From assembly GCA_965218095.1 (NCBI GenBank), contig OZ244587.1:3520001-3584000 (forward strand): a DNA stretch of 64,000 bases, in the 5' to 3' direction. This stretch comes from Candidatus Poribacteria bacterium (GTDB lineage Bacteria > Poribacteria > WGA-4E > PCPOR2b). The notes under the pieces are model-generated. The model did no database searches, was not told the DNA's origin, and saw nothing but the letters and a program-made list of their open reading frames with translations. Positions 1,883 through 20,050 of the stretch are shown here, piece by piece. A program made the position numbers and the translations under genes. Position 1 is the stretch's first letter, and each line of letters starts with the position of its first letter.

Positions 1883-1956
1883 AACACAAACGAAAATTCT
1901 AGCTTAAGCAATTAAATTTCAATCAACAGATCGCGCTTTAATATCCGTCGGGAGAG

Positions 1957-4900
1957 TTGATTATGAACCAACACAGAGCCGCCATCACGAACGCCCTAAA
2001 CCGCTTCACCGATGGGAGTCTCGCTGAAAACGCACGAAACCTGCTAAATACACTCGGCTATGGGAGCGAAAGAGCCCTAGCCCTTGAACCGAACACCGCC
2101 GACGCGTTTATTGACGCGTTCGATCTACAAGAGAAACTGAATCACGATAAGGCACTGACGACAGAGTGGGCGTCCATCAATCCGCTTTTCCAACTCAGAG
2201 GTGAGGACTTGACGCGCACAGATATAGACGGATGGCTTTTCGATCCCAGCCAGACGCAGGTAGATAACACCATCATCGAGTCCTACCTTTTCCTCGCGCT
2301 CTGGTTGGACGGAAGCAATTACAACCGCACCCAACTCTCGCAAATCACCCGCGAAATCAACAAACTGTTCCCGATGCCCGCGATGCTGCTCTTTCAGCAC
2401 GGCAACACACTCACGCTGTCGGTTATCAACCGCCGTTTGGGTGTACGCGACCAATCCCGCGATGTCCTCGAAAAAGTAACCCTCATCAAGGATATTGATT
2501 TCAAGGATACCCACTGTGCGCACATCGATATTCTATTCGATCTCGCCCTCGAACCGTTGAATCAAACGCACGGCGTCCACAACTTTGTTGAACTGCATCG
2601 CGCTTGGGAAAAGACACTGGATACCGAAGAACTCAACAAGAAATTCTACCGGGATCTGTTCGACTGGTTTGAACGGGCGGTTGCTGAAGGAAAGTTTCCG
2701 ACAGACAAAAATCGCACTTTGAAGCCAGAGGAGCACGTCATCCGCTTAATCACGCGCCTGCTGTTCGTCTGGTTTATGAAGGAAAAGAGGCTGGTTGCGG
2801 AAGAACTGTTCAACGAGACGCAAGTTTCCCCCTTACTGAAAGACTACGACCGCGACACCGGCGACTCCTACTACCGCACGGTGCTACAGAACCTGTTTTT
2901 CGCCACACTCAACACTGAGATAGAGAAGCGTCAGTTTAGCAAAGGGGGAAACCCAGGACATCGCAACTTCTCATTGTATCGTTACAAGGATGAGATAACC
3001 GACTCCGATAAACTCCTAACACTGTTTGCCCAAACGCCATTTATCAACGGCGGTTTATTCGATTGCCTTGACAGCGAGGAGGCAACACGAGATGGTGGCT
3101 ACCGCATTGACTGTTTTTCCGATGTGCATTACAACAAGCTAAGCATTCCCAACCGTCTTTTCTTTGACAAACAGCGCGGTCTGTTTCCCCTGCTGGAACA
3201 CTACAAGTTTACTGTCGAAGAAAATACACCGATAGAGCAGGATGTCGCGTTGGATCCGGAACTGCTTGGTAGGGTGTTTGAAAACCTGCTTGCCGCGTAT
3301 AATCCCGAAACCGGCACAACGGCACGGAAACAGACAGGTTCTTATTACACCCCGCGCCCCATCGTGGACTATATGGTGGATGAAGCGTTAGTGGCAGTGT
3401 TATCGCAAAAGTGCAACCTGGCCGAAGACTGGTTACGGTCTCTACTTGATTATACGCAGATGTCCGACAATGGCAAAAAGTGGTCTGATAACCCTGAAGC
3501 CGACTGCGTTGTGAAGGCGATTTCCCAACTCAAGATACTGGATCCGGCGGTCGGTTCAGGTGCTTTTCCGATGGGGGTACTGCACAAACTGACCCTTGCG
3601 CTGCAGAGGTTGGACCTAGATAACAGCCGGTGGGAGAAGCTACAGAAAGAACGTACCATCCAGCGGGCGGCGGCTGCGTTTGATACAAAGGATAGACAGA
3701 CACGCGATGAAGAGCTCAAGGAAATTAGCAGAATCTTTGAAAATTATTCCGGCAACTTCGGGCGGAAGTTGTATCTGATCCAAAACAGCATCTTCGGCTT
3801 GGACATTCAATCCATCGCCTGCCAAATCGCTAAACTCCGCTTCTTCATCTCCCTTGCTATTGAGCAGGAACTGGATAGAGATGCAGACAACTTCGGGATT
3901 AAGCCTCTGCCGAATCTGGAGCCCCGCTTTATCGCGGCAAACACGCTAATCGGTCTCGAAGAAGAGCGAACCCTGACAAGCCAAAAAGCGAAAGTTTTAG
4001 AGGGGGAATTGGATGATAACCGTGAGCGGCATTTCCACGCAACGACACGCCCGCAGAAACTAGCGTGTAGGAGAGAGGACAAAAAATTGCGGCGAGAATT
4101 GGCGACGGAATTAAGGCATATCGGTATGCCCGCCGATGATGCGGATAAAGTTGCCGACTGGGACCCCTACGACCAGAATGCAAGTGCGGACTGGTTTGAC
4201 TCGAAATGGATGTTTGGTATCACAGACGGGTTTGATGTGGTGATTGGAAATCCACCGTACCGGCAAGTCCACAAGGGCGTACATTCAGCGGCTCAGTTTC
4301 CTTATTCGGAGGGTAGAGACAAAGGCAAGCAAAATCTTTATAAACTATTTGTGGAGCAGTCATACAACCTTTGCAAACGGCGCGGGGTGGTCACTCTCAT
4401 CGTGCAAAGCAGCTTGATGTGCGACCTTTCGTCCGCCGTGACTCGTCAACTTCTGCTGGAACACACACAGTTGAAACACATCATTGAGTTTCCAAAGACA
4501 GCGCAGTCACGGGAGGTACAAGTTTTTACAACCGTGACACAAGGCACCTGTATCTATCAGTTTACTAAAGCTTTGCCCAATGGTGAACCTATCAAAATTT
4601 CGGTGGGCAACGATGCTCATAGCATTGCAGATTTGAGATTCTCCGCTATTACTAAAGAAGCGATTATGAATTTGTATCCAGAACTACGATACTTTCCACA
4701 TATCGGAGAAGGCAGTGTTTCCATTCTGGAGAAAATCGCTGACGACGAAACCATTAATCCTCTGAAGCATTACATTGCCGATATCATCCAAGGCGATCTC
4801 AATCTGACCACACATTCCTCTCGATTTTCTCGGGTGCCTTCGGCTGTGCGTCTTTTGCGCGGATGGCACGTAAATCGTTTCGTTGTTAAGTATGATGACG

Positions 4901-5388
4901 CAGACGAATATTGCGAAGAGGGATTTATGGTAGACAAGGTTGCAGCCAACAGAAGCAGCACTTTTCTGATTTGTCAGCAAATAACAGGCACGGTTGACCT
5001 CCGACGCTTACACTTTGCTTTGACCGCAAACCCATCAACAGATTTTCTGTGGGGTAATAGCGTCAACAAAATGCTGTTGAAAAACTGGGCGCATAGCAAG
5101 ACGGTCTTGGCATTGCTCAACTCCAAATTTATGGATTGGTTTTTTCGTATCACTTCGACAAATAACCATGTACAGGGTTACGAATTGGAACAACTACCCA
5201 TACCGGTAATGTCTGATGATAACCGTGAAAAACTCAACAATCTGGCAGGGCAAGTTATGGAAGCCAAACGCACCGACCCGGACGCGGATGTATCCGAACT
5301 TGAAAATAAGATTGACCAGATAGTATACTTGTTATACGGTCTTGACGCTGATGAAATTGAGATTGTGGAGGAGGCGGAAAATGTCTGA
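1957..5388 (+). CDS. Type IIG/Eco57I-like restriction-modification N6-adenine DNA methyltransferase with C-terminal target-recognition region
   Basis: Motif X GSYYTP, motif I ILDPAVGSGAF, motif IV VIGNPPY; typical tail IDQIVYLLYGL…EIEIVE; likely start ATG 1963. Confidence 0.9.
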   Translation: MIMNQHRAAITNALNRFTDGSLAENARNLLNTLGYGSERALALEPNTADAFIDAFDLQEKLNHDKALTTEWASINPLFQLRGEDLTRTDIDGWLFDPSQTQVDNTIIESYLFLALWLDGSNYNRTQLSQITREINKLFPMPAMLLFQHGNTLTLSVINRRLGVRDQSRDVLEKVTLIKDIDFKDTHCAHIDILFDLALEPLNQTHGVHNFVELHRAWEKTLDTEELNKKFYRDLFDWFERAVAEGKFPTDKNRTLKPEEHVIRLITRLLFVWFMKEKRLVAEELFNETQVSPLLKDYDRDTGDSYYRTVLQNLFFATLNTEIEKRQFSKGGNPGHRNFSLYRYKDEITDSDKLLTLFAQTPFINGGLFDCLDSEEATRDGGYRIDCFSDVHYNKLSIPNRLFFDKQRGLFPLLEHYKFTVEENTPIEQDVALDPELLGRVFENLLAAYNPETGTTARKQTGSYYTPRPIVDYMVDEALVAVLSQKCNLAEDWLRSLLDYTQMSDNGKKWSDNPEADCVVKAISQLKILDPAVGSGAFPMGVLHKLTLALQRLDLDNSRWEKLQKERTIQRAAAAFDTKDRQTRDEELKEISRIFENYSGNFGRKLYLIQNSIFGLDIQSIACQIAKLRFFISLAIEQELDRDADNFGIKPLPNLEPRFIAANTLIGLEEERTLTSQKAKVLEGELDDNRERHFHATTRPQKLACRREDKKLRRELATELRHIGMPADDADKVADWDPYDQNASADWFDSKWMFGITDGFDVVIGNPPYRQVHKGVHSAAQFPYSEGRDKGKQNLYKLFVEQSYNLCKRRGVVTLIVQSSLMCDLSSAVTRQLLLEHTQLKHIIEFPKTAQSREVQVFTTVTQGTCIYQFTKALPNGEPIKISVGNDAHSIADLRFSAITKEAIMNLYPELRYFPHIGEGSVSILEKIADDETINPLKHYIADIIQGDLNLTTHSSRFSRVPSAVRLLRGWHVNRFVVKYDDADEYCEEGFMVDKVAANRSSTFLICQQITGTVDLRRLHFALTANPSTDFLWGNSVNKMLLKNWAHSKTVLALLNSKFMDWFFRITSTNNHVQGYELEQLPIPVMSDDNREKLNNLAGQVMEAKRTDPDADVSELENKIDQIVYLLYGLDADEIEIVEEAENV
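5353..5372 (+). repeat. Junction site GAAATTGNNATTGTGGAGGA (other copies at 5953, 6084, 7754, 7894, 10729, 14713, 14933, 16726)
   Basis: The ~20-mer recurs at gene boundaries; it encodes EI(A/G/E)IVE(E/D) and contains a GGAGGA Shine-Dalgarno; copies at 6084, 7754 and 7894 are degenerate. Confidence 0.8.
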
Positions 5389-5457
5389 ATCACGGATTAA
5401 ACAGATGACGCGGATAGCGCGGATTTCTTGAATCTGTGGCAATCTGTGATTCTGACA
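5382..5457. repeat. Palindromic TGTCTGAATC…GATTC(A/T)GACA intergenic element (also ~5988-6078 and 14747-14844; half copies at 5938, 7739, 10772 and ~14918)
   Basis: Inverted ends with internal CGGATT/AATCCG or CAGGAT/ATCCTG sub-repeats. Confidence 0.75.
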
Positions 5458-5486
5458 AGGGTATATACTAACAGAGGATACAAATA

Positions 5487-5885
5487 ATAAGCAACAATCT
5501 AAAATACAGGGATATCACCGAAAAGATTATTGGGGCTGCTTTTGAGGTACATAAGTTTTTAGGAAACGGCTTCCAAGAGGTGATTTATCAGCGAGGATTG
5601 GCGTTTGAGTTAGCACAAGCGGGTTTGGCATTTACGCGTGAAATTGAGCAAGACATTTTCTATAAAGAGTTGCCGGAGCCTATAGGCACGCGTCGAGCAG
5701 ATTTCGTGGTCGAAGAAAAAGTGTTGGTGGAATTGAAGGCTATCTCTGAATTGGAAGATGTACACATAGCCCAGGCATTAAATTATTTGAAGGCATATCG
5801 GCTGGAAGTAGGTTTATTGATCAATTTCGGATCTAAAAGATTGATATTCAAAAGATTGATTCTTTCGCAACCGGATCACGGCTGA
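5487..5885 (+). pseudogene. GxxExxY protein (PD-(D/E)XK-like fold) whose start codon reads ATA instead of ATG
   Basis: Same 399-nt length and near-identical sequence to 10263..10661; caaataATAagc versus caaataATGagc. Confidence 0.8.
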
Positions 5886-6034
5886 TGTAGATAACGCCGA
5901 TTTAATCTGTGTTCTCCTTGAATCCGTGACAATCTGCGATTCAGACAATGAGGAAATTGGGATTGTGGAGGATGGAGTGGGGAAACTATCTGAATCACGG
6001 ATTAAACAGATGACGCGGATAGCGCGGATTTTTT

Positions 6035-6210
6035 AATCTGTGTCCTCCTTTAATCCGCGATAATCTGCGATTCAGACAAAGAAGGAATCGCCACAGTGGA
6101 GAAACCACCGCTCCGCTCCGCTTGGATAGCGATATCCAAGCGATATAGGGATAAGAAACGATACCTCCCAAAATCCTGAAAATCCTAAAATCCAGTGAAT
6201 CCAGATTCAG
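6035..6210 (+). repeat. ~170-bp direct repeat (second copy ~7705-7882) flanking the TIR-TPR gene
   Basis: Both copies read …gattcagac…aatcgccacagtggagaaacc…cttggatag…atatccaa…aaatcctgaaaatcctaaaatcc…gattcagac. Confidence 0.85.
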
Positions 6211-6224
6211 ACAGAGGAAAGAGA

Positions 6225-7616
6225 ATGAGCGAACCACTAGAAGTATTCATTACCTATTCACATGAGAACACAGAAGCAAAAGACGAACTCATAACGCGCC
6301 TTGCTGTGATGAAGCAACAAAATGAATTAGTAACTTGGCACGACAACGAAATGCTCCCCAGTGACAAGTGGCGTGAAGAAATTTTTTCCACGCGCCTTCC
6401 CAATTCGGATCTTTTGCTCTACCTCGTTTCCGCTGCGAGCCTTGCCTCTGAAAACTGCAATAGGGAGTTGGTAGTAGCCTTAGAAAAAAACATAAAACCC
6501 ATCCCGATTATCCTTGAGGATTGCGATTGGAAAAAGCATCAACTTGGTGAATTCCAAGCTCTTCCTGACAAAGGCAATCCTATTAACGAGTGGGAATTTA
6601 AGAGCAAAGGTTGGCAAAATGTAGTAGAGGGCATCCGAAAATTCGTTGACGCAATGCAGTCTCAGGTGGATTCGCCTCCCAGTACGCCTGAAGAAGAACT
6701 ACGCGCTGAATTGGCAATCCAACAGGGTAATTTTCTGCTAATGCTCAAGCAAGTAGACAGGGCGATAGAAACCTATTCACGCGCGATTGACCTCAATCCT
6801 CGCGCTGCTCATGCCTATTATAATCGTGGCAATGTTTACCACAACAAAGGCGAGTTTGGACGCGCCATCGTAGACTATAACAAAGCGATAGAACTCAAAC
6901 CCGATTATGCCGGTGCCTATTACAATCGTGGTGTGGCTTACGGAGAAAAAGGCGATACTGACCGTGCCATCGCAGACTATAATAAAGCGATACAACTCGA
7001 CACCAATTGTGCCATGGCCTATTACAATCGCGGTAACGTTTACATAGACAAAGGCGATGTTGGTTGTGCCATCGTAGACTATACCAAAGCGATAGGACTA
7101 AATCCTGATTATACGGAAGCCTATTACAATTGGGGTAATGCTTACTACAACAAAGATGAGTTTGACTGTGCCATCGTAGACTATACCAAAGCGATAGAAC
7201 TGAATCCTAATCTTAGGGAGGTCTATAACAATCGCGGTCTTGTTCACGGTAACACAGGTCATCCTGACCGTGCTATTAAAGATTTTACCAGAGCGATAGA
7301 ACTGGATCCTAATTATACCGGAGCCTATTACAATCGCGGAGTGGCATATTACAAAAAGGGCGATTTTGAGCGCGCCATTGAGGATTTTGACAAGGCTTTA
7401 CAACTGAAACCTGATTATGCCATGGCCTATGGCAATCGCGGCGAGGCATGGTTACACCTGAGAGAATGGGAAAAAGCCAAAGCAGACCTAATGGAGGCCA
7501 GAGTCATGGGGATAAATATCATCGCTGTGTTTCGTAACGACTACGGAAATGTTGCGGACTTCGAGGGTAGAAACGGGGTTAAGCTGCCGGCAGACATCGC
7601 CGCCATGTTGCTTTGA
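6225..7616 (+). CDS. TIR-domain + TPR-repeat protein
   Basis: VFITYSH…WHD…LLLYLVSAASLASENCNREL…IPIILEDCDW is a TIR_2-like domain retaining the catalytic-type Glu; ~7 TPRs; shared C-terminal cap. Confidence 0.9.
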   Translation: MSEPLEVFITYSHENTEAKDELITRLAVMKQQNELVTWHDNEMLPSDKWREEIFSTRLPNSDLLLYLVSAASLASENCNRELVVALEKNIKPIPIILEDCDWKKHQLGEFQALPDKGNPINEWEFKSKGWQNVVEGIRKFVDAMQSQVDSPPSTPEEELRAELAIQQGNFLLMLKQVDRAIETYSRAIDLNPRAAHAYYNRGNVYHNKGEFGRAIVDYNKAIELKPDYAGAYYNRGVAYGEKGDTDRAIADYNKAIQLDTNCAMAYYNRGNVYIDKGDVGCAIVDYTKAIGLNPDYTEAYYNWGNAYYNKDEFDCAIVDYTKAIELNPNLREVYNNRGLVHGNTGHPDRAIKDFTRAIELDPNYTGAYYNRGVAYYKKGDFERAIEDFDKALQLKPDYAMAYGNRGEAWLHLREWEKAKADLMEARVMGINIIAVFRNDYGNVADFEGRNGVKLPADIAAMLL

Positions 7617-7918
7617 ATCTCCCGATAAATCGGGATTCTCGGAACGGAACCGATCTTATCGGGGCTAACACCCCAGCAATAAGCATCACCGTCGGCGGTT
7701 TTTGAATCTGTGTCATCCTTTAATCCGTGGCAATCTGCGATTCAGACAACGAAGAAATCGCCACAGTGGAGAAACCGACGAACTGCTCCGCTTGGATAGA
7801 CATATCCAAACGATATAGGAATAAGAAACGATACATCCCAAAATCCTGAAAATCCTAAAATCCTGTAGATCCTGATTCAGACTCTCCCCCGAAGAAATTG
7901 GGTTGTAGAGGACAAATC

Positions 7919-9392
7919 GTGAGTACACAAAACCCATCCAATCCCCAAGACGACCTAAACGCGGTTTTGGAAATCATCCGTGAGGTAGCAGAAAAATCAA
8001 CCAGCGACAACTACATCTACCGCGGCGAACCCAGACGCCATAGAAAAGTGTCGTCAAGCCTTTGGCGTGAATGCAAGAGAAAAATGCGGACTGAGGACTT
8101 TGATATACAGGCTATCGAAGGGCTAATACTGGACTCGGCTAAAAACTATACCCCCGAACAAGAGGAAATTGAAATCTGGGCTGAACTCCAACACTATGGG
8201 GGTCACACTAATCTTATAGACTTTACGACGGACAACCATATAGCCCTCTTCTTCGCCTGCGATCGTTTCTTTGACAAACCGGGCAGGGTTATTTTCTTGG
8301 GAGAAGGAGCGCAGAACGAAAATCGAGTTGAGAAAAAACCCCAGAATCCACGAAACCGCATCATAGTCCAGAAGAGTGTATTCATTCGACCACCCACAGG
8401 TTATGTTGAGCCAGACGATATAATCACTATCCCAGCACACCTCAAACAACCCATATTAAGTTACTTGGAAAAACATCACGGTATATCTAACGAAACCATC
8501 TATAACGACCTTCATGGGTTTATTAGAAATCAGGACATGCACCAGATTGCCTGTATAGAGTTTTATGACGGTTCAATCCAGCAACAAACAGGAGACCCGG
8601 AGAATGAAGACACAAGCGAAACTTGAGCATTACGATAAGGCAATTGAGCACTATAGCAAAGCAATAGCACTGCAACCCAATTTTGTCATCGCCTATAACA
8701 ATCGTGGCATTGCTTACGGTGATAAAGGCGAGTATGACCTTGCCATTGAAGACTTTAACATGGCAATAAAACTGAAACCGGATTATGCTATCGCCTACAA
8801 CAATCGCGGGGCGGTTTACCGCATCATAGGCGAGTATGACCGTGCGATCGAAGACTGTAATAGGGCGATAGAGCTCGATCCCGGTTATGCTGAGCCTTAT
8901 AGCAATCGTGGTGCGGCTTATCGGGAAAAAGGCGAGGAGGACCGCGCTATCGCAGACTATGACAAGGCGATACGACTGAAACCTGATTTTGTTGAGGCAC
9001 ATTACAATCGTGGAGTTGCTTACATCAAAAAAGGCAATTTTGACCGTGCCATCGTAGGCAATACCAAGGCAATAGAACTCAAACCTGACCTTGCACATGC
9101 CTATAATAATCGTGGTAATGCTTACACTCAAAAAGGCGAGATTAACCGTGCCATTGAAGATTATAACAGAGCGATAGAACTGAAACCTGACCTTGCTGAG
9201 CCTTATACTGGTCGGGGGGTGGCGCGGTTACACCTCAGAGAATGGGAAAAAGCGAGAGCAGACCTGACGGATGCCAAAAACATGGGAGTGGATATTACCG
9301 CTGGGTTTCATTATTTCTATGAAAGTGTCCCGGACTTCGAGGGTAGAAATGGGGTGAAGCTACCGGAAGACATCGCCACCATGTTGCTTTGA
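7919..9392 (+). pseudogene. FRG-domain + TPR protein split by a frameshift near 8590-8620 (ORFs 7898..8626 and 8565..9392)
   Basis: YIYRGE…LQHYGGHTNLIDFTTD…IALFFAC is an FRG domain; collinear with the intact paralog 14959..16698. Confidence 0.8.
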
Positions 9393-9547
9393 ATCTCCCG
9401 ATAAATCGGGATTCTCGGAACGGAACCGATCTTATCGGGGCTGACACCCCAGCAATAAGCATCACCGTCGGCGGGTCTTTTTGAATCCGTGTCAGCCGTT
9501 AATCCGCGACAATTCGCGATTCTGACAATGATACATACCAACATAAC

Positions 9548-10248
9548 TAGGAGTTACGCACTTGGTCAGAAAATAGGTTATAATATAGACTATGAATCCA
9601 CCCAAATGCAATGAATATGAATATGACTATACCAACTTTCTGATTACGACTTCCAGATACACAGTTGTACTGAGGCTGCCAGAGTCCAACCCCAAAAAAT
9701 AACGACAACCGTTACAACGCCGCAAAATGGGATAAGCAATTCTAGGCTAACGCAGGCGAATTACCTCCGGGAACTGGAGAAGTGTCATCGACAACTAGCA
9801 TCTAAGGCAGTGAGCGCATTGAACGCCGCGTATGACAGTCTATAATCTACAATTTCCTCCCTTAGCCCCAAAGAGTGAATCTCATTTGTTCCTGCTGATT
9901 TGAGCGTTCAACTGCGTTAATTCTACATATGACTCGTCGGTGCAAATCTTTATCATTATGCACGCCAACTTTTTTGGTTCATGTAAAAAGAAAGTGCAAA
10001 GCGCAAGGAGAAACCGAGTTTTCAAGAAAAAACTCGGTTTCTGTTGCACGATTTCTTAACATCAGCCACTTTTTTTTGCGTTGGCATTGCGTTGGCATTT
10101 TTATGAAAAATGAATTGGTGTGCCCTGATAACACAAATAAAGCAAAACCTAAGCATTTACTGTAGTTGCCCGATTCATCGGACGTCATGTTGCTTTGAAT
10201 CCCGATCTCCGCATCGGGGGTTTTGAGCATTCAACTGCGTAAGTCCTA
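9548..10248 (+). mobile_element. IS701-like MITE, copy 2
   Basis: Same TIRs; same TSD ATAAC (9543-9547 and 10249-10253); 6 nt longer than copy 1 owing to a GAATAT duplication. Confidence 0.8.
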
Positions 10249-10262
10249 ATAACATACAAATA

Positions 10263-10661
10263 ATGAGCGACGATCTGAAATACAAAGATACTACCGAAAA
10301 GATTATTGGGGCTGCTTTTGAGGTACATAAGTTTTTAGGAAACGGCTTCCAAGAGGTGATTTATCAGCGAGGATTGGCGTTTGAGTTAGCACAAGCGGGT
10401 TTGGCATTTACGCGTGAAATTGAGCAAGACATTTTCTATAAAGAATTGCCGGAGCCTATCGGTACGCGTCGAGCAGATTTTGTGGTCGAAGAAAAGGTGT
10501 TGGTGGAATTGAAGGCTATCTCTGAATTGGAAGATGTACACATAGCCCAGGCATTAAATTATTTGAAGGCATATCGGCTGGAAGTGGGTTTATTGATCAA
10601 TTTCGGATCTAAAAGATTGATATTCAAAAGATTGATTCTTTCACAACCGGATCACGGCTGA
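10263..10661 (+). CDS. GxxExxY protein (PD-(D/E)XK nuclease-like), intact
   Basis: LGNGFQEVIY motif, RADFVVE..VLVELKA, QALNYL, GLLINFG. Confidence 0.92.
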   Translation: MSDDLKYKDTTEKIIGAAFEVHKFLGNGFQEVIYQRGLAFELAQAGLAFTREIEQDIFYKELPEPIGTRRADFVVEEKVLVELKAISELEDVHIAQALNYLKAYRLEVGLLINFGSKRLIFKRLILSQPDHG

Positions 10662-10907
10662 CGCAGATAACGCCGATTTAATCCGTGTCCTCCTTTAATC
10701 CGTGACAATCTGCGATTCAGACAGTGAGGAAATTGGGATTGTGGAGGAGGCCACGAATTGCGTGTGTAAATTGTCTGAATCAGGATTTTCAGGATAGAAG
10801 GATAAACAGGATAAGAAAGGATGCGTCCAAAAACCCTGAGAATCCCCAAATTTTGTTGCCGACAATACACCACACTGAAGGACAGGAGGGAAAGGAAGAA
10901 ATTTTTG

Positions 10908-12536
10908 ATGGAAGAAATAAACTGGGAAATTCCGAGAATATCGGACGATCCAATAAAACTAACGCTAAAGAGTGGTGATCAATTATTCATCATAGGAGCT
11001 AATGGTTCGGGGAAATCGGCGTTAATACAGCGATTTGTTTCGGAGAATAGAGGCAACAGGGTTAAGCGGATAGCTGCACATAGACAAACATGGTTCGACT
11101 CAGGAAGCATCGATCTTACACCCGCAGGGCGCCAAGAACATGAGACAGACACGCTAAACTACAATAGAAACAATGAAGCTCGATGGAAGGATCTCAGGGG
11201 GGGCGAGGGTTTATCTGTTGTCTTATTTGACTTGATTGCTAAAGAAAACGCTATTAACAAGTCTATTGCTCGCCATGTACGTAATCAAGATACTGACCAA
11301 GCATTAGAGTTTTCTGCTGAATCGCCATCGCCGTTCGATCAGATAAATGAGTTGCTTGCTCGCGGCAGACTGACGGTTACGATCGAAAACTCTGATGACC
11401 AGAATCTACTCGCAAGGCACCCACAGGGGGAGCCCTTCAGCATTGCAGAAATGTCAGATGGCGAACGGAACGCAATGATCATCGCAGCGCACGTTATTAC
11501 GGCTGAACCTGAAACGGTGTTCGTGATCGACGAACCGGAAAGACACCTCCACCGATCCATTATCCAGCCATTTCTCTCGGCGTTGTTCGCCCTAAGAAGG
11601 GAGGACTGTACATTTATTATCGCAACCCATGAGATCGCACTGCCGGTCGCCAACCCGGATGCACAAGTTCTCATGCTCCGATCATGCCAGTGGAGCGGTA
11701 AACAATGCCATGCTTGGGATGCCGAAGTCTTGAAGCCGAACTCTGAACTACCGGAGGACCTCAAACTCGCAATCTTGGGATCCAGAAAAAGGATCCTCTT
11801 CGTGGAAGGCCAGCTTGGCAGTTCAGATTTTTCACTCTACACTACTCTCTTTTCCGGACTTTCCGTGATCCCAAAGGAGAGTTGTGAGGAGGTCCAAAAG
11901 GCGGTGCTTGGGTGGCGAGGATCTCAAGAAATCCACCCTGTACATGTAGAAATATTTGGACTCATTGACCGAGATAACCGGACAGACGAGGATGTAAAGG
12001 AACTTGCCAAAAAGGGTGTATTCGCTTTAGAAGTGTATTCGGTTGAAGCTCTCTACTATTGCTCAGACGCTATTGCTGCTGTTGCTGAACAACAAGCAAA
12101 ACTCCGTGATGAAGATGAAAGTAAACTCATCGAGTCGGCCAGGCAAAAGGCAGTTGGTGTTCTGAAAGGCCACGCGGAGGAAATGGCGGCGCGGATGTGC
12201 GAACGCCAAATACAAAAACTCACTCTGTCGAAAATTCCGGGCTGGAAGTCAATTAAGGATAACCCAACTCAACCAATCAGCGTATCTATTGATCCAATAG
12301 CCTATTCTGAGGAGCTTAATTACTTCGATAAACTTGTCGATGATGAATACCTAGATCAACTTATTGCCCGTTACCCAGTGCATAAAAGCTGCGCTCTTAC
12401 AACTATCGCGAAAACCCTCAAATGCTGCGATAGAAACGACTATCAGCAGATAGTTCTCGCCCAAATTCAGAAAGACAGTCAATTGGCTTGCAAGTTCAAA
12501 GAGCGTATTGGCCTACTTTCTGAAACACTGGATTAG
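10908..12536 (+). CDS. ABC-type (AAA_21/AbiEii-like) ATPase fused to a TOPRIM/DUF4435-like domain
   Basis: Walker A GANGSGKS, signature MSDGER, Walker B VIDEPE, H-loop ATH; C-terminal FVEG…D and GLIDRD. Confidence 0.85.
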   Translation: MEEINWEIPRISDDPIKLTLKSGDQLFIIGANGSGKSALIQRFVSENRGNRVKRIAAHRQTWFDSGSIDLTPAGRQEHETDTLNYNRNNEARWKDLRGGEGLSVVLFDLIAKENAINKSIARHVRNQDTDQALEFSAESPSPFDQINELLARGRLTVTIENSDDQNLLARHPQGEPFSIAEMSDGERNAMIIAAHVITAEPETVFVIDEPERHLHRSIIQPFLSALFALRREDCTFIIATHEIALPVANPDAQVLMLRSCQWSGKQCHAWDAEVLKPNSELPEDLKLAILGSRKRILFVEGQLGSSDFSLYTTLFSGLSVIPKESCEEVQKAVLGWRGSQEIHPVHVEIFGLIDRDNRTDEDVKELAKKGVFALEVYSVEALYYCSDAIAAVAEQQAKLRDEDESKLIESARQKAVGVLKGHAEEMAARMCERQIQKLTLSKIPGWKSIKDNPTQPISVSIDPIAYSEELNYFDKLVDDEYLDQLIARYPVHKSCALTTIAKTLKCCDRNDYQQIVLAQIQKDSQLACKFKERIGLLSETLD

Positions 12537-12720
12537 GTAGAAAACCCGCAAACCGAATAGTTAGAACCTCCATTTTTAACCCAAGTTCGTCGCTTCCAGA
12601 TCCTCTCCAGCATCAAACAGGATGCGTATCTCGTCTGCTCTGTGAAATTTGGTTGACACCTATTCACCGAAAGATTATTATGACACCAAAAGAAATTCGC
12701 ATCGTGAAGGAGAAGAAGTC

Positions 12721-14268
12721 ATGCTAGAACTGAACTCAGCACCCGTTGGCTTTGATTACGCTTATAAAAGTGGGCCTAACAGAGATACTACCAAAGCGAT
12801 AGACCCGAAACTTGACGATGCCGAGGAATATAATACCCGCGGCATCGCTTACAGCGAAAATGGCAAGCAAGATAGGGCAATCGCAGACTATAACAAAGTG
12901 ATAGAACTCAAACCCGATTATGCCAACGCCTACAACAATCGCGGCATTGCTTACGGGGTAAAGGGCGATTTTGATCGTGCCATCACAGACTTTAACAAAA
13001 CGATAAAACTCAACCCGAATAGTGCCAATGCCTATAACAATCGTGGCGTTGCTTACGGGTTAAAGGACGAGGTTGACCTTGCCATCGCAGACTATAACAA
13101 AGCGATAAAACTCAAACCCGATTATGCCGCAGCCTATAACAATCGTGGGATTGCTTACCGCGATAAAGGCGATTTTGACCGTGCCATTGCAGACTATAAC
13201 AAAACGATAAAACTCAAACCTGATTATGCCGCAGCCTATAACAATCGTGGTGCTGCTTACGACAAAAAACGCGATTTTGACCTTGCCATCGCAGACTATA
13301 ACAAAGCGATAGAACTCAAACCCAATTATGTCGAGCCATATACCAATCGTGGGGTTGCCTACGACAAAAAACGCGATTTTGACCTTGCCATCGCAGACCA
13401 TAACACGGCGATAAAACTCAAACCCGATTATGCCGAGGCCTATAACAACCGCGGGATTGCTTACTTCAACAAAGGCGATTTTGACCGTGCCATTGAAAAC
13501 TATAACACAGCGATAGAACTCAAATCCGATGATGCCATAGCCTATTACACTCGCGGTGTAACGCGCTTACACCTACAAGCATGGGAAGAAGCCAAATCCG
13601 ACCTGACGACTGCCAGAAACATGGGAGTGGATATCACCGCAGAGTTTTGTAACATCTACGGAAGCGTTGCAGGCTTTGAGCAGATAACAGGTATTCGGTT
13701 ACCTGCAGACATCGCCGCAATGTTGACACCCCAAGTAATTGCCATGCGAAATAAAGAAGCGTGGGAGGCGACTCACGAATTGGCGAGCGATGCCGAAATT
13801 GGCTTAGACGAGCTCTTAGAAAACTATGCGCGGGCATGGAAAACTCTAGCAGAAGTGCCTCTGCTAGAAGGAAGTTCTGTTCACGCAGATTTAGATGACC
13901 TCGCTCCAACGGACATAGAGAAGGCACTGCAAAAAGTACGAGCAGAAGCAGAAGAAGAGAGGAGACTTGATCAAGAACTAGATGCCATCCCAGAAACGGC
14001 TTACCAAGATGTGGATCGGTTTTTGAAAACAATCAACAAACTCGTACCCCTACCCGATATTATGCCCTTAGACAACGGTGAAATCTGCCTCGAATGGCGA
14101 GAAGGACAAAAGATATTTACCTTGAGTTTTGGTGGAGATGGGCACATTGTTTTTGCTGGAATCTTCGGCGCGGAGAATCACACGCGTGGGATATTAACCT
14201 TCTCAATGCCTCACCTTATCGCCGTTATTGGCATGATTACAAGTCTTTACCTCCATTATGATTATTGA
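12721..14268 (+). CDS. TPR-repeat protein with the shared cap followed by a ~180-aa C-terminal extension (putative antitoxin-like domain)
   Basis: ~7 TPRs; cap …LPADIAAML; extension ending PLDNGEICLEW…; RBS AAGGAG before ATG 12721. Confidence 0.8.
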   Translation: MLELNSAPVGFDYAYKSGPNRDTTKAIDPKLDDAEEYNTRGIAYSENGKQDRAIADYNKVIELKPDYANAYNNRGIAYGVKGDFDRAITDFNKTIKLNPNSANAYNNRGVAYGLKDEVDLAIADYNKAIKLKPDYAAAYNNRGIAYRDKGDFDRAIADYNKTIKLKPDYAAAYNNRGAAYDKKRDFDLAIADYNKAIELKPNYVEPYTNRGVAYDKKRDFDLAIADHNTAIKLKPDYAEAYNNRGIAYFNKGDFDRAIENYNTAIELKSDDAIAYYTRGVTRLHLQAWEEAKSDLTTARNMGVDITAEFCNIYGSVAGFEQITGIRLPADIAAMLTPQVIAMRNKEAWEATHELASDAEIGLDELLENYARAWKTLAEVPLLEGSSVHADLDDLAPTDIEKALQKVRAEAEEERRLDQELDAIPETAYQDVDRFLKTINKLVPLPDIMPLDNGEICLEWREGQKIFTLSFGGDGHIVFAGIFGAENHTRGILTFSMPHLIAVIGMITSLYLHYDY

Positions 14269-14671
14269 TCCAAGAGAAAGACTCAGTCGTTTCGTACTGA
14301 GCAGAAATGAGTTTCGTCCTTCTGATCAGACTGTTAGGCCTAAAGCATTTATCCCGCCAAAAAACAAACGGTTGTCCGTTTACCGTACCTCAACACTGAG
14401 CGAAGACGAGATTTGGTCAACTGGTAACGAGTTTGTCGCTGAACCGAGAGGTAAGACCCTTTACGGTCGAGCAGACCTTTTGGCACAAGATGTTTACGCT
14501 CTCCGGCAAAAGGTTGAACCAGAAACTTCTATACATCCTTTACATGCTGATATTATACTGTGGCCAGACGGACGGGACGACATTTTATTTTTGGCAACTC
14601 AACTCGTACTACGGTCGAAATTCGTTTCAAGAACGTCATCCCCGAACGCTTTAGTCGGGGACGGGAAATGA
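14258..14671 (+). CDS. Small hypothetical protein, possible ART/RES-like toxin fold
   Basis: Overlaps the upstream stop; R…AF…LSVYR…HADI pattern. Confidence 0.55.
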   Translation: MIIDPRERLSRFVLSRNEFRPSDQTVRPKAFIPPKNKRLSVYRTSTLSEDEIWSTGNEFVAEPRGKTLYGRADLLAQDVYALRQKVEPETSIHPLHADIILWPDGRDDILFLATQLVLRSKFVSRTSSPNALVGDGK

Positions 14672-14958
14672 GATTAATCAACTGATACACTTAATACAAC
14701 TTAACTCCTGAAGAAATTGCCATTGTGGAGGATTGGGTGGGTAAATTGTCTGAATCAGGATTTTCAGGATAAGAGAGGATTGGTCGCCATCTCAACTCGA
14801 CGAGCAAAAGAATCCTGAAAATCCAGTGAATCCAGATTCAGACAATTGCGAGGATAAGGTATCGCCGATAACGGGTCTTTTTGAATCCGTGTCATCCTTT
14901 AATCTGCGGCAATCCGCGATTCAGACAATGAAGAAATTACCATTGTGGAGGACAAATC

Positions 14959-16698
14959 ATGAACTCACAAAACGACCTAAGCAAAATTAGGGAAAAAATC
15001 AGCGAGATAGAGGAAAAATCAGCCAACGGCGACTATATCTACCGCGGCGAACCTGAATGTTATGAGAAAGTCTCCTCGAACCTCTACCGCCAATACGAGA
15101 AAGAAATTGAGGCGGAGCACTTTGATATAGAGGTTGTCCAAACAGAAATTCTGAACGAGGCTAAGAAATATGCCCGCGAGACCGACAACGAATTTGAAAT
15201 CATGCCCCAACTCCAACACTGCGGAGGTAAAACTAACCTGATAGACTTTACGACCGACTACCTGATAGCGCTCTTCTTCGCCTGTGATGGCTTTCTTGAC
15301 AAACCCGGTAGGGTTATCTTGTTGGGAGAAAGAGCACGGAGAGAAAACCAAGTCGAGGAACCTCCGAATCCAATAAATCGCGTCAAAGATCAGAAGAGTA
15401 TATTCGTTCAACCGCCCAAGGGCTTTATTGAACCAGAACTAGACAATATAATTGATATTCCCAAATGCCTCAAACAGCTCATGTTAAACCACTTGGAAAA
15501 GTACCACCGCATATCTACCGAAACCATCTACAATGACCTTCATGGATTTATTAGAAATCAGGACCTCCATCAAAGCGCCTACACGGAGTTTTTTAAAGGT
15601 TTGACGTGTCAAAAGAGAAAGCAGTATGATAAAGCCATTGAGCATTATACCACAACGATAGAACTCAAACCTAATTATGCCGAGGCCTATAACAATTGCG
15701 GCATTGCTTACCGCAACAAAGGCGAGATTGACCATGCTATCGAAGACTTTAACACAGCGATAGGACTCAAACCTGATTATGCCGAGGCCTATAACAATCG
15801 CGGCATTGCTTACCGCGACAAAGGCGAGATTGACCATGCTATCGAAGACTTTAACACAGCGATAGAACTCAACGATTATGCCCCGGCCTATAACAATCGC
15901 GGCAATGCTTACCGCAACAAAGGCGAGATTGACCATGCTATCGAAGACTTTAACACAGCGATAGAACTCAAACCTAATTATGCCCCGGCCTATAACAATC
16001 GCGGCATTGTTTACCACGACAAAGGCGATTTAGAACGCGCTATCGAAGCCTATACCAAAGCGATAAAACTCAACAATTATGCCCCGGCCTATAACAATCG
16101 CGGCACTGCTTACCACGACAAAGGCGATTTAGAACGTGCTATCGAAGACTATAACACAGCGATAGAACTCAAACCACACCTTGCCGAGGTCTATTACAAT
16201 CGCGGCAATGCTTACCGCAACAAAGGCGAGATTGACCATGCTATCGAAGACTATACCAAAGCGATAGAACTGAATCCCGATTATGACGAGGCCTATAACA
16301 ATCGCGGCACTGCTTACAACGACGAAGGCGATTTTGACCACGCCATCGAAGATTTTAACAAAGCGATACAACTCAAACCATACTTTACCGAGGCCTATAA
16401 CAATCGCGGGGTGGCTTACGGCAAACCGGGTGAGTACGCCCTTGCCATCGAAGACTATACCAAAGCGATAGAACTGAATCCCGATTATGCCATCGCTTAT
16501 AACAATCGCGGTGAGGCGTGGTTACACCTGCAAGAATGGGGTAAAGCCAAAGCCGACCTGACGACTGCCAAAAACATGGGGGTGGATATTATCACAGCGT
16601 TTCGTAACGACTACGTAGACATCTCGGACTTCGAGCAGAGAAATGGCGTCGAGTTACCGAAAGACATCTCCGCAATGCTAAGGCGACCGCAGACATGA
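14959..16698 (+). CDS. FRG-domain + TPR-repeat protein
   Basis: YIYRGE, LQHCGGKTNLIDFTTDYLIALFFAC; ~9 TPRs; shared cap. Confidence 0.9.
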   Translation: MNSQNDLSKIREKISEIEEKSANGDYIYRGEPECYEKVSSNLYRQYEKEIEAEHFDIEVVQTEILNEAKKYARETDNEFEIMPQLQHCGGKTNLIDFTTDYLIALFFACDGFLDKPGRVILLGERARRENQVEEPPNPINRVKDQKSIFVQPPKGFIEPELDNIIDIPKCLKQLMLNHLEKYHRISTETIYNDLHGFIRNQDLHQSAYTEFFKGLTCQKRKQYDKAIEHYTTTIELKPNYAEAYNNCGIAYRNKGEIDHAIEDFNTAIGLKPDYAEAYNNRGIAYRDKGEIDHAIEDFNTAIELNDYAPAYNNRGNAYRNKGEIDHAIEDFNTAIELKPNYAPAYNNRGIVYHDKGDLERAIEAYTKAIKLNNYAPAYNNRGTAYHDKGDLERAIEDYNTAIELKPHLAEVYYNRGNAYRNKGEIDHAIEDYTKAIELNPDYDEAYNNRGTAYNDEGDFDHAIEDFNKAIQLKPYFTEAYNNRGVAYGKPGEYALAIEDYTKAIELNPDYAIAYNNRGEAWLHLQEWGKAKADLTTAKNMGVDIITAFRNDYVDISDFEQRNGVELPKDISAMLRRPQT

Positions 16699-16816
16699 AT
16701 GTTGACAGACAGATTAACCTCCGAGGAAATTGCCATTGTGGAGGAAGCCCTTGAAAGAAAATTAACCTGATGATTACGCCGCCAAATTTCAAAAATTGGT
16801 GTAGGAGGATAAATCC

Positions 16817-17134
16817 ATGAATGGCGCAGAAAAGGTCGTAAAGCATTTGGAAATGACCCAAGCCGTTATTAACCATTTGGGAAGCAACAGCCTCTTGGTC
16901 AAAAGCTGGAGCATGACAATTATCGTCGCAGCGATGGTTTTAATCGGCAAACAGGACATACAAAGCCCATATTTTTCATGGTGCTTATTCTTCCCATCCT
17001 GGGATTTCGGTAGAGGTTATGTTCACCTTTTTCGTGTTTGTAGTGGTTTATACGAAGGCATTATAAAGTCCATGCATCCAACTCGCGAGTCGAGGGAAAT
17101 CAGGGTGCCCCTATCGGTGAGTTCGGGGTTGTGA
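16817..17134 (+). pseudogene. Truncated membrane protein of the HLEMIQxVIxRxxxNSxxxKxW family
   Basis: N-terminal motif KHLEMTQAVINHLGSNSLLVKSW plus one TM helix, after which the sequence degenerates. Confidence 0.55.
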
Positions 17135-17285
17135 TTGTTTCCCTGAATTCCCGGACAGATCAGCGTAGGCCTGGCAAATTCGGCCACCAAAGGCGCAGGA
17201 AGGAATCAACTAATGAGCAGCCGCATCCATTGATTTCGAGCAGTCCAATTGTCTGAGAGAGCCATGTAAGGAAAGGAGGTCAATT

Positions 17286-18449
17286 ATGACGCGAACTATA
17301 GGCGTCGGCGTAATCGGCATGGGGTGGATGGGCGCCGTACACAGCCGTACCTACCAACAGATTCCGAACCGTTTTCAAGACGGTGGCATCCAACCACGCC
17401 TGGTAATCTGCGCTGATGACGTTGAGGCGCGTGCGCATGAAGCGCAAGAACTTTTGGGCTTTGAACGATACACTACGGATTGGAAACAGGTCATTGCCGA
17501 TCCGGAGGTTGAGGTTGTGAATATTACCGCTCCAAACAACATGCACCTTGAAATTGTGCGGGCAGCAGCCGGGGCGGGTAAGCATATCTTCTGCGAGAAA
17601 CCTGTTGGTCGAAATCCGCAGGAAACTGCCGACATCGAATATGCAGCACGCCAGGCTGGCGTTTTGACCTTTGTCGGTTATAATTACAGGTGGGCGCCGC
17701 TTGTGCAGTACGCCCGACAACTGATTCAAGAAGGACGCCTGAGCAGGCTGACGCACTATCGCGGGCGTTTCTTTGCGGGCTATGCAAGTAATCCTCACAG
17801 CGTACTGTCGTGGCGTCTTCAGCGCGAGGTTGCGGGGCTGGGGAGCCTGGGTGACCTGATGTCGCATGTCATCGATATGGCACAGATGATAGCTGGTCCT
17901 ATCAAGCGTGTGGTGGGCAACTGCGAGACTTTCGTCCCACAACGTCCGCTTGCCACACCTGGTGAAGGCACGCATTTCAGCATCCGCACAGACGGCCCAA
18001 TGGGCGATGTTACCAACGAAGACTATGTTGGCGCGTTGGTGCAATTTGCCAATGGAGCCCATGGCGCTTTGGAGGTCTGTCGGGTCATAAACGGCCCGCA
18101 GTGTCAACTGGCATGGGAGGTGCATGGTACGGGCGGGGCATTAAATTGGGACTTCGAGCGCATGAATGAGCTCAATCTATTTCTCTCCCATGAGGATAGT
18201 GCGCGCGACGGTTACACCCGTATCATGAGCGGTCCCGAGCACCCGTTTCATGCACAGTTCAATCCTGGACCTGGTGTGGGTTTAGGCTACGAAGACCTAA
18301 AGCTCATTGAAGCCTACCAATTCTTGAAGTCGATTCGAGATGGGGAACAGCGCGAACCCGGCTTCCGCGAAGCGCTGGCCGTGGCTGACGTACTGGCTGC
18401 GATTCAACGCTCGTGGGAGACGGGGGGTTGGGAAAACGTACAGATATAG
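17286..18449 (+). CDS. Gfo/Idh/MocA family oxidoreductase
   Basis: GVIGMGWMG Rossmann motif, [13 protein letters not shown]; strong RBS. Confidence 0.92.
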
Positions 18450-18625
18450 TACACTCTCATTTTGACGGGCGCCGTAGAGCCTGTCCGATTCTCGGACGAG
18501 CACTGCTAGTTGGTTCATCCGCTTCGGCGGTGGCGGTTGAACGGTCCCCAATTGCATTGAGGGTAGGCTTGGCAGCGCCGCTCTACTTTAACCCTCACGA
18601 GTTATTTTACAAACAGGAGGTCAAA

Positions 18626-19183
18626 ATGAAAATCCGTGAAGATTTAAAACCCGGTAACATATTCCCAAACTTTGAACGCCCCGACCAAGACGGCGTGATC
18701 AGAACACTGGACGAACTGATGCGGGGATGGCCAACGATTGTCGTCTTCTGGCGTGGACAGTATTGACCGAAGGATGTTCTCCAGTTGGAGAATTACGCAA
18801 GAGACTTGCAGCCCGAATTGCGGGTCAACTACTGCAAGCTAATCGCGGTCTCAGTCGATGATCAGGAAACGACACAAGCCTTTCGTGCGCGGATCAGCGC
18901 GGAGTGGCCTTTCCTGATTGACGCCGATCGGGCGCTGATCAATGAACTGGACATCGTGGACAACACGGACCCGGTCCACTCTCCGATTCCCATTCCCTAT
19001 ACCTTTGTGCTGGACAGCAATCGTGAAATCTACAAAATTTACAACGGTTGGTGGTTTGTGGGACGCCCCACGGTGGAGGAGCTACGGCACGATTTGCGGG
19101 CATTGATAGCGCGCCGAAATGACTATGAATATGACTGTGCATGGGATGTCTCAGAGGAGGTACGGGAGGGGGCATTTCTCTAG
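18626..19183 (+). CDS. AhpC/TSA-family redoxin with in-frame UGA (18764-18766), probable selenoprotein
   Basis: ORFs 18413..18766 and 18785..19183 are in the same frame, giving FWRGQY-UGA-PKD at the peroxidatic Cys position; RBS AGGAGG before ATG 18626. Confidence 0.8.
18777..18792 (+). promoter_or_regulatory. Putative bacterial SECIS hairpin
   Basis: TTCTCC-AGTT-GGAGAA, starting 11 nt after the UGA, with G in the apical loop. Confidence 0.6.
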
Positions 19184-19269
19184 GGCGTATTGGCGAACTT
19201 GAGACAGTCCTTGTTGGATGGAAATGACGGTGTGCAGCGGAGAACGGAAAACGGGAAACATGCGACGAC

Positions 19270-19715
19270 TTATACCAACTTTTCGATTTCCGTACGAAGC
19301 GCTTCAAAAGTTTCTGCGACAGACATGCCTGCTTCCTGCAGTACTTCTGCTCTGCCGCAAACCGAACCGCGCCCGCCTTCGACAATCACCCCGGCGTGAC
19401 CAAACCACACACCCTCAAGATCATCCACAAACCGGCGGGATAAAAATGCAGTAATGCGGAGTCGAGAGGGCTTTTTCTTCAATCGTTCCGCAAATTGTTC
19501 CTCCGCAGCGCCACCCGGTTCACCATAAATAATCCCCGCATCTGTGGCGGGGGCATCTTCGAGTAACTCAACCAGATCCGTGAAATTTGAACCGACGATT
19601 GGATCGCCACCCACTCCGATGGCGATGCTTTGCCCAATGCCACGGCTGGTTAAATAACTGGCGATTTCGGTAGTCATACCGCCGCTGCGGGAAAGCACCG
19701 CGACATGTCTCCGCG
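19270..19715 (-). pseudogene. sucD: Succinyl-CoA synthetase alpha-like C-terminal fragment
   Basis: VAVLSRSGGMT…GVGGDPIVG…YGEPGG…FGHAG; N-terminus missing. Confidence 0.7.
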
Positions 19716-20050
19716 TAAACGAGCGACGCACATTATCCACGCGCCCACCAATAGAAACACTTCTTCGGGGCGTTGCACTTTCGTCAAGGTTAAGCCCTCC
19801 AAACCGGGGCAAATCATCGCACGCAGATCCGCCTCCATATCCGCGCTCCCGGCGGGGTGGATACGCACGAAACGAAGCGAACCTCCCGGCGGATGTCCCA
19901 GGGCTTTTGCTGGCAGGGAGCGGGCGGTATCTTTCTCGGCACGCCATCCTCTAGATCGAACATCGCAACATCTAGCTTCAGCCCGAGGGCTTTATCGATC
20001 ATTTTCTGTTGATGCCCAGGCACGAACATCCAGGACCGCATCATCTGCAT
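19716..20050 (-). pseudogene. CitE/HpcH-HpaI CoA-ester lyase N-terminal fragment, frameshifted
   Basis: RSWMFVPG…FDLEDGVP, continuing in another frame as …GLTLTKVQRPEEV. Confidence 0.7.

Follow-up and report, generated by a model that had tools for sequence, protein, structure and literature searches.

Restriction-modification genes are known centres of growth for defence islands, and how genes come to be stacked there is mostly unexplained. In staphylococci, the staphylococcal cassette chromosome (SCC) elements and composite islands land at the 3' end of rlmH (orfX), stack in tandem and repeat the end of the gene at their borders. Orphan rhs-CT modules are said to "resemble displaced fragments", with 522 bp at 95% identity (PMC3967940, in the part that deals with them). 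Close linkage to the methyltransferase-centred defence loci of BREX and its relatives is reported for nucleases, OLD-type ATPases and genes of the HEPN, PIN and Schlafen kinds (PMC12839542, relevant sections). Here we describe an array of defence cassettes in a stretch of 64,000 nt (the window) from a Candidatus Poribacteria genome (GCA_965218095.1, contig OZ244587.1, positions 3,520,001 to 3,584,000; 6.35 Mb in all, labelled G000), throughout which a short motif, R, recurs between the genes. The evidence supports the view that the copies of R are relics of methyltransferase 3' ends, or "orphan 3' ends", which mark the borders of defence cassettes lying on the same strand.

The distribution of R is far from that of a chance word. 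Sought at up to three mismatches, GAAATTGNNATTGTGGAGGA has eight matches in the window, where shuffled sequences give a mean of 0.08 and at most one. The whole genome holds five exact matches and 11 at up to two mismatches, nine of which lie within a single 21-kb stretch (G000 3,515,610-3,536,745), all on the + strand; R is therefore not a general ribosome-binding context, and the genome-wide scan proposed in an earlier note on this DNA returned a cluster and not the scatter of a plain ribosome-binding site (RBS). A looser search with a 23-mer brings the array to 14 copies, every one of them between open reading frames (ORFs) or at the end of one, as that note had held. It had also listed nine sites. 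Five of these are exact (5353, 5953, 10729, 14713 and 16726) and one has a single mismatch (14933), while the remaining three (6084, 7754 and 7894) are not matched at up to three mismatches and can be recognised only inside longer repeat families (D8, D12), as degenerate copies with five of 23 positions substituted at 6081, four of 23 at 7751 and a 1-nt deletion at 7891. To this list we add a degenerate copy at 12689 and four copies in the DNA upstream of the window, covered by locus L001 (15607, 15717, 18932, which is weak, and 19012). The long remnants reported at 14671-14732 and 16714-16745, and the junctions GGAGGAcaaatcATG at 14959 and GAGGAcaaatcGTG at 7919, read as claimed.

The origin of R is evident from two live genes of which it is the in-frame end, methyltransferase-1 (L001:11983-15645) and methyltransferase-2 (window 1957-5388). 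The latter has both an Eco57I-type N6-adenine methyltransferase domain and a TaqI_C specificity domain, as a type IIG enzyme should; its N-terminal ~250 aa have no Pfam match, and a PLD nuclease domain is found on the neighbouring SNF2 helicase. When the last 170 nt of methyltransferase-2 were compared with 41 related genomes, matches were obtained in 25. About 50 paralogues are full gene ends, aligned from query position 42-46 to 170, and in these genes a conserved 3' block of ~125 nt lies behind a variable specificity region. The shorter matches among the related genomes are relics, and their 5' starts are scattered (53, 58, 72, 81, 86, 91, 101, 107, 114 and 128-143). In many live genes of other genera the likeness to the query reaches no further than about position 154, where the GGAGGA lies; since the sharp 3' edge of R is thus the end of a conserved coding block, it need not be a cutting site. 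The length of the relics is not constant, ranging from 22-23 nt through 62 nt (14671-14732) and 118 nt (in G007) to 510 nt (in L038), where relic and resident gene share 87% identity across 156 aligned aa.

The same arrangement is found in relatives of this genome. At up to two mismatches the 20-mer has 151 matches in the 41 related genomes and the reversed control pattern 23 (hand sums, live gene ends included), and about 10 of the genomes, judged by eye, have at least two matches within 5 kb. Three of them, G022, G019 and G007, carry the same kinds of cassette behind homologous methyltransferases, with R ahead of each. Window positions 7834-9207 match G007 at 85%, including the split of an FRG/TPR gene pair; two FRG copies are preceded by R-caaatc-ATG/GTG; a second FRG type is preceded by R-caaaaagt-ATG in G000, in G019 and, with a degenerate R, in G007; and R occurs with a PDC-M50A gene at two loci of G000. 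Because these junctions between R and start codon recur before FRG genes of both types, and R with PDC-M50A at two loci, the tails evidently travel with the gene behind them.

Evidence for a wider occurrence came from relatives of the methyltransferase fetched from 72 loci of named records, of which the 37 holding the gene end were used. The last 72-75 nt of each gene were compared by BLAST with their own locus, a procedure that replaced a strict peptide motif scan (26 loci, other phyla) found to be too narrow. Extra copies of the gene's own end were present at 8 of the 37 methyltransferase loci, against 19 of 345 control ORF ends (p ~0.002); a match at L034 is a palindromic self-match, so that eight loci are counted and not nine. 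The control, made of stop-to-stop frames of at least 300 aa on both strands, is noisy, and at least one of its matches (L082, +5570) falls on a second methyltransferase, which has an array of its own. Toxin-antitoxin (TA) cassettes separated by R are found in L055, L058, L051, G063 and L082. Those of L055 are HigBA-like, YoeB-type and PIN pairs, separated by gene-end copies of 67 and 53 nt that are 97% and 92% identical; in L082, which like G000 has two live methyltransferases per array, the gene-end copies are 95-96% identical. In L088 and L038 the pattern recurs, with cargo of other kinds.

Three of these loci are orthologous and can be aligned. In L055, L051 and L058 the flanks are 76-95% identical, and differences are confined to the interval between the methyltransferase stop and ppx, in which only the R copies are common to all three. 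The earlier note had expected loci to gain, lose or reorder cassettes exactly at the motif, and the comparison, made on these orthologous loci of other lineages, bears this out: cassette content differs only between R copies, so that no differences away from the motif were found. A MazEF cassette occupies different array positions in L058, L051 and G063. The 5' half of the R downstream of it is cassette-specific in two genomes, while the 3' half varies with the cassette that comes next; the switch point in L058 is close to the MazF stop. As read from these few cases, this suggests crossovers at varying points within R, for which general recombination would be a better fit than a fixed site. 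Two further features of these loci were noted. A weak IS200-like Y1 transposase (Y1_Tnp-like) ORF lies between helicase and methyltransferase in L055 (7346-7897, E 5e-6), and a REP-like (repetitive extragenic palindromic) GC-rich hairpin is inserted directly after the methyltransferase stop in two related genomes, L051 and G063 (L051 11523-11690, L096 ~4712-4910).

R may also serve translation. The V-E-E/G codons read GTGGAGGA/G, and the methyltransferase tail thereby carries a Shine-Dalgarno-like GGAGG. The proposal that the GGAGGA acts as the RBS of the next gene holds for 5 of the 14 copies, in which GGAGG or a degenerate form (AGAGG, GGAGA, AAGGAG) lies 6-17 nt ahead of a start codon, and the 3' end of the 16S rRNA contains CCTCC; in several cassettes GGAGG stands 6-9 nt before the start codon, with stop and start sometimes overlapping. 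It does not hold for the other nine: what comes after R is a hairpin or an arm of one in 7 of the 14 copies, a spacer in two (6081, 7751) and an alternative coding tail at 16723. Behind R the cargo genes begin with start codons of their own, and the R fragment is not continued in frame into the cargo. In a weak scan, promoter-like and terminator-like sites in the array were no more frequent than in shuffled sequences (21 where 26.9 were expected, and 14 where 18.7 were). Among the sigma-70-like matches in the region the best (11/12, by consensus only) is at 12653-12681, just upstream of the degenerate R at 12689 and of a TPR gene.

The first 4.4 kb of the array lie upstream of the window. All of its cassettes are on the + strand, with defence genes as cargo: TIR-TPR, FRG-TPR, a fused PARIS-like ATPase and PDC-M50A. 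It begins behind methyltransferase-1, a type IIG-like enzyme of the Eco57I family that ends in LYDLTPKEIAIVEEAENV before its stop codon and is paired with a PLD-SNF2 helicase (L001:8438-11779). Behind it lie, in order, a ~380-aa ORF without family, a TIR-TPR gene, a Fic/Doc gene and an FRG-TPR gene, the last of which starts at L001:19043 and extends with its 3' part into the window (1-485). There follow a hairpin right arm (A') without R, leading into a ~700-nt composite repeat (555-642; families D8, D9 and D13), and the first 139 nt of a truncated GxxExxY cassette (1340-1478; family D11), 99% identical to 5478-5616. These two 139-nt repeats bracket the module of methyltransferase-2 (1957-5388; Eco57I, N6_Mtase, TaqI_C; PADLOC REase_MTase_IIG), which ends in LYGLDADEIEIVEEAENV before its stop and holds R in place, as its own last conserved codons (5350-5372). 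The stop codon of each live methyltransferase gene lies inside the left arm of a hairpin, that behind methyltransferase-2 being at 5382-5457 (z -4.9).

Downstream of it are a GxxExxY (PDDEXK_3) gene copy with ATA where two paralogues have an ATG start (5478-5885), arm A' with R (5883-5972; D8), a second hairpin (5989-6076, z -4.4) and a degenerate R (6081-6103). The next cassette, TIR-TPR (6225-7616; TIR_2, ThsB-like in PADLOC), is bracketed by 184-nt repeats that are 89% identical (6029-6212, 7699-7882; D12); A' with a degenerate R (7684-7773) and a further degenerate R (7891-7912) then lead to the GTG at 7919, which is 6 nt from the latter. This start belongs to an FRG gene (7919-8626) overlapping a TPR gene (8565-9392). 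Behind the pair come an A' arm without R and the ~700-nt composite repeat (9463-10254), 94-98% identical to 558-1002; an intact GxxExxY gene (10263-10661); A' with R (10659-10748); and an ATPase with AAA_21 and DUF4435 domains, called AriAB by PADLOC and resembling a fused PARIS system (10821-12536). The degenerate R at 12689-12711 stands 9 nt ahead of the ATG (12721) of a TPR protein whose C-terminal extension has no family assignment (12721-14268), followed by a 137-aa ORF without family match (14258-14671), the 62-nt frameshifted methyltransferase 3' remnant (14671-14732; EINQLIHL/NLTPEEIAIVED), a hairpin of a second type (14741-14849, z -4.25) and A' with an R whose frame reads VEDKS and ends in a TGA overlapping the ATG at 14959 (14863-14952). 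The last two cassettes are a fused FRG-TPR gene (14959-16698; PDC-S15 in PADLOC) and, behind an R remnant with another tail (LTSEEIAIVEEALERKLT before the stop; 16714-16770), a small PDC-M50A-like gene whose 3' part diverges from its paralogue (16817-17134). The ORF after it is, by reading of the translation, a core oxidoreductase-like gene.

Two properties of the cargo are worth recording. The overlapping FRG and TPR frames (7919-9392) recur in G007 (L019 6363-7941) at 85% DNA identity and are fused in the paralogue at 14959-16698, from which the two-frame layout would appear to be a conserved split or a programmed frameshift and not a fresh mutation. All TPR cassettes share a C-terminal tail (WLHLxEWEKAxxDL...GVxLPxDIAAML; window 305-479, 7436-7610, 9212-9386, 13551-13725 and 16506-16680) together with its 3' flank, and differ in their N-terminal domains (TIR, FRG or none), which suggests, from the translations, domain swapping on a common scaffold.

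A segment of more than 1 kb is present twice in the array, comprising TPR tail, arm, composite repeat, GxxExxY gene, arm and R, and the duplication 5478-5972/10254-10748 terminates exactly at the edge of R. R directly follows a hairpin right arm in 7 of its 14 copies, a recurring junction. Four of five hairpin units in G000 fold with z from -3.4 to -4.9 and one with -1.7; two units of G021 are not significant. The core of the arm is nearly confined to the array locus in G000 (nine of nine exact matches, 10 of 13 with one mismatch), and the arm occurs without R at 555 and 9463 and beside a fourth GxxExxY gene at 4.219 Mb. A second defence island on the - strand (G000 5,317,998-5,333,957) has the same hairpin arms and a unit of A', R and PDC-M50A (5,326,280-5,326,620, - strand); by reading of translations it also contains an ATPase module of two genes, a 342-aa IS-like ORF in duplicate and a fragment of a methyltransferase. 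The ~700-nt composite element (640-1340 and 9550-10254, copies 94-98% identical), pieces of which recur at at least a dozen other sites of the genome, contains a hairpin at 1084-1138 with a spurious mir-1954 match. Rfam gave two weak mir-1954 matches and nothing else on window 1-20000 at E up to 1, and only tRNAs on L092 and L014 at the gathering score.

The comparisons above establish the identity of the copies, their place at cassette borders, the cargo, the recurrence in other lineages and the breaking of strain differences at the copies. We consider it probable that the conserved methyltransferase tail is an anchor for the accretion of cassettes by homology, through ordinary recombination. 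The repeated 20-mer is the end of the ~125-nt conserved block that closes Eco57I-family genes paired with a PLD-SNF2 helicase. A new module, consisting of the 3' part of a methyltransferase and the gene behind it, might recombine in through this block and push older modules downstream, each of which would keep a truncated gene tail in front. Such tails, here welded to the REP-like hairpins of GxxExxY cassettes, could become portable homology for ordinary recombination, with unequal crossing-over, duplication and the insertion or loss of cassettes as the outcome. Both the route and its dependence on general recombination are what we infer from the pattern, and the REP-like element is most likely an accomplice in this lineage. 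The earlier proposal of R as a landing site that stacks cassettes thus survives in that relics border cassettes and related genomes differ exactly between copies; the dedicated integron-like machinery implied by it finds no support.

Several observations weigh against accretion by homology. No recombination event has been observed, and the contigs of four public runs are too fragmented for joints of excision or deletion to be seen. With its 22-23 nt, R offers little length for general recombination, except where the adjoining arm is added to it. Arm and R meet at a junction (GATTCWGACARY followed by GARGAAATY) that recurs in G000, G022 and G007 and could also be read as a fixed site. The TA arrays are very tight, the stop codon abutting R and the start lying just after it, which is tidier than random illegitimate joins. 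Finally, a unit of R and hairpin has been amplified in seven arrays of G021, at least one of which has no methyltransferase within 14 kb (L092) and one of which lies in a DUF1156/DUF499 locus (L093); on account of these arrays, a repeat-element process is needed as well.

This last point leads to the rival that survives best, according to which R is a passenger: a hairpin like those of REP sequences and bacterial interspersed mosaic elements (BIMEs), or of miniature inverted-repeat transposable elements (MITEs), would have captured a methyltransferase tail, and R would mark the landing of the repeat and not of a cassette. The frequent junction of arm and R, the arms without R and the arm at 4.219 Mb are as expected from it. 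So is the state of G021, with at least 38 copies in its seven arrays, in which gene-less units of ~153 nt consist of tail and hairpin. One of these, a 2.6-kb tandem array (L092 6830-9425), has a 198-aa gene on one side and three tRNA genes on the other and counts ~17 hairpin units, in some of which a methyltransferase tail forms the linker. Another (L093) is flanked by genes assigned, from their N-terminal sequences, to a DUF1156 methylase and a DUF499 ATPase. Since R and hairpin thus occur away from the methyltransferase, R has in part spread by riding along with a repeat element. Contigs of the four public runs that hold the array are short and end at hairpin arms (loose ends 6172/6213, 7842/7882, 10009/10042 and 14911), with 15-42 different flanks at the arm edges; the listed joints, 20-43 letters to a side, do not keep register with the repeats. 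The arm core, however, is nearly confined to the array locus in G000, and R occurs free of arms here (12689, 14671-14732 and 16714) and in G019. The arrays of L055, L058, L051, G063, L082, L088 and L038 have R without such paired hairpins, and the junctions from R to start codon are conserved across genera. As an account of the whole, we find this rival rather unlikely.

Still less likely is a site-specific cassette platform, similar to integrons or SCC, in which R, alone or with its hairpin, would be cut by a dedicated enzyme, encoded at another place or so far unrecognised, for which the GxxExxY nuclease-fold protein and the PLD-SNF2 helicase are candidates. In its broadest form, which we hold to be equally improbable, the tail of the type IIG-like methyltransferase would be the attachment site of a widespread cassette-capture platform worked by an as yet unrecognised enzyme, by the system's own helicase-nuclease or by the GxxExxY protein. 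Were this true, promoterless defence and TA cassettes would be inserted and excised at R, with transcription from the methyltransferase operon and the RBS from R, and the locus would be a functional analogue of an integron built on a restriction-modification gene. In favour of such a platform, the cassettes are compact and on one strand, promoter-like and terminator-like sites are not in excess, the border after GTGGAGGA is sharp and the arm-R junction recurrent, real hairpins of 80-110 nt follow R, G021 has tandem gene-less units, TA and defence cargo is typical of integron cassettes, and pieces of an IntI-like pseudogene are present elsewhere in the genome. The nearby recombinase that the earlier note had suggested looking for outside the window was sought, and neither a tyrosine nor a serine recombinase is present within G000 3.50-3.59 Mb, nor is any recombinase family among the scanned ORFs of the locus; the nearest Phage_integrase match is at 3,073,338, ~440 kb away. 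Over the genome the IntI profile TIGR02249 gives only sub-threshold pieces, the best at 216 bits against a cut-off of 265. This piece is an integron-integrase-like pseudogene with 7 stops (G000 1,536,854-1,537,808, - strand), and fragments lie at 2,745,024 and 1,055,430-1,055,824. No conserved recombinase stands beside the arrays of other lineages (the weak Y1_Tnp-like ORF is all there is in L055), and no RAYT-type transposase was found next to the array in G000.

The properties of R also argue against a dedicated site. R alone has no hairpin potential on either strand (z 0.26 to 1.0), and no integron R''/R' core motifs were seen on reading the sequence. In the TA arrays of other lineages the R copies are not each accompanied by an inverted repeat, the only such element being the REP-like insertion that follows the methyltransferase stop in L051 and G063. 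The relics range in length from 22-23 to 510 nt, and their 3' edge is accounted for by the point at which coding conservation ceases. Thus of the earlier likening to an integron array without an integrase, the missing recombinase holds good for 3.50-3.59 Mb, while the dedicated machinery finds no support in an R that does not fold and has no fixed length, nor in the long ordinary repeats. The exact pattern of the arm-R junction has no match in the viral and genome contigs searched, which says little because the near-matches in G022 and G007 differ from it by one or two letters. Three other systems were set aside from reading the sequences, with no dedicated test: a diversity-generating retroelement (no reverse transcriptase was seen and the differences are not adenine-specific), a shufflon (all copies are direct) and a type III TA RNA array. 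Chance recurrence of a common ribosome-binding context, for which the GGAGGA in the motif might speak, is refuted by the shuffle expectation, by the genome clustering on one strand and by flanks that extend the homology to gene ends, and its likelihood is negligible.

If the conserved tail is indeed an anchor, the array and its counterparts in several unrelated lineages would offer a concrete route by which defence islands stack genes, a gene end of ~125 nt acting as the shared site of recombination. Such an anchor would leave one gene-end relic for every module acquired, a trail that can be read, and would also provide the next gene with an RBS. With these relics as a search key, cassette arrays and new defence or TA genes could be sought in metagenomes, and the relics could also help to reconstruct the order of acquisitions.

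In the literature searched, no description was found of methyltransferase-end repeats bounding cassettes, and the GxxExxY papers found are not on this subject. Several known systems nevertheless share features with the locus. SCC elements likewise use the 3' end of a methyltransferase gene as landing site, stack in tandem and have a gene end at each border, but they depend on Ccr serine recombinases and a short fixed repeat; at our locus we found neither an element-encoded site-specific recombinase nor a border repeat of fixed length. The hairpins resemble REP/BIME sequences in being imperfect palindromes made up of short words that are repeated, in their intergenic position and in their tandem amplification, and GxxExxY genes lie beside them here. 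Palindromic units like those of REP/BIME or MITE families are thus present, nearly confined to one locus in G000 and dispersed over seven arrays in G021, but the linker between hairpins is here a piece of a protein-coding gene. BREX-related loci also embed auxiliary or backup effectors at methyltransferase-centred defence loci; they centre, however, on DUF499, and neither a DUF499 ATPase nor DUF3780 is among the scanned ORFs of our locus, while the relevant sections of PMC12839542 neither describe repeated gene-end relics nor use the term "cassette". The Rhs/CdiA orphan modules are similar in that modules downstream of the main gene keep a displaced fragment of its conserved part and in that homologous recombination reshuffles the locus (PMC3967940, in the part concerned). 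Fragments of the conserved part of the main gene are likewise found downstream here. In those modules the reading frame runs on from the fragment into a variable toxin domain, whereas here no such in-frame continuation is seen: it is the very end of the gene that is repeated, the cargo genes are separate and R provides a leader or RBS at most. Finally, integron arrays and integrase-less attC clusters have in common with our locus compact cassettes on one strand, perhaps poor in promoters, TA and defence cargo and gene-less units, although IntI is neither nearby nor intact here and R is not a folded attC. The array is thus integron-like in outcome and not in machinery, its growth being most likely homology-driven.

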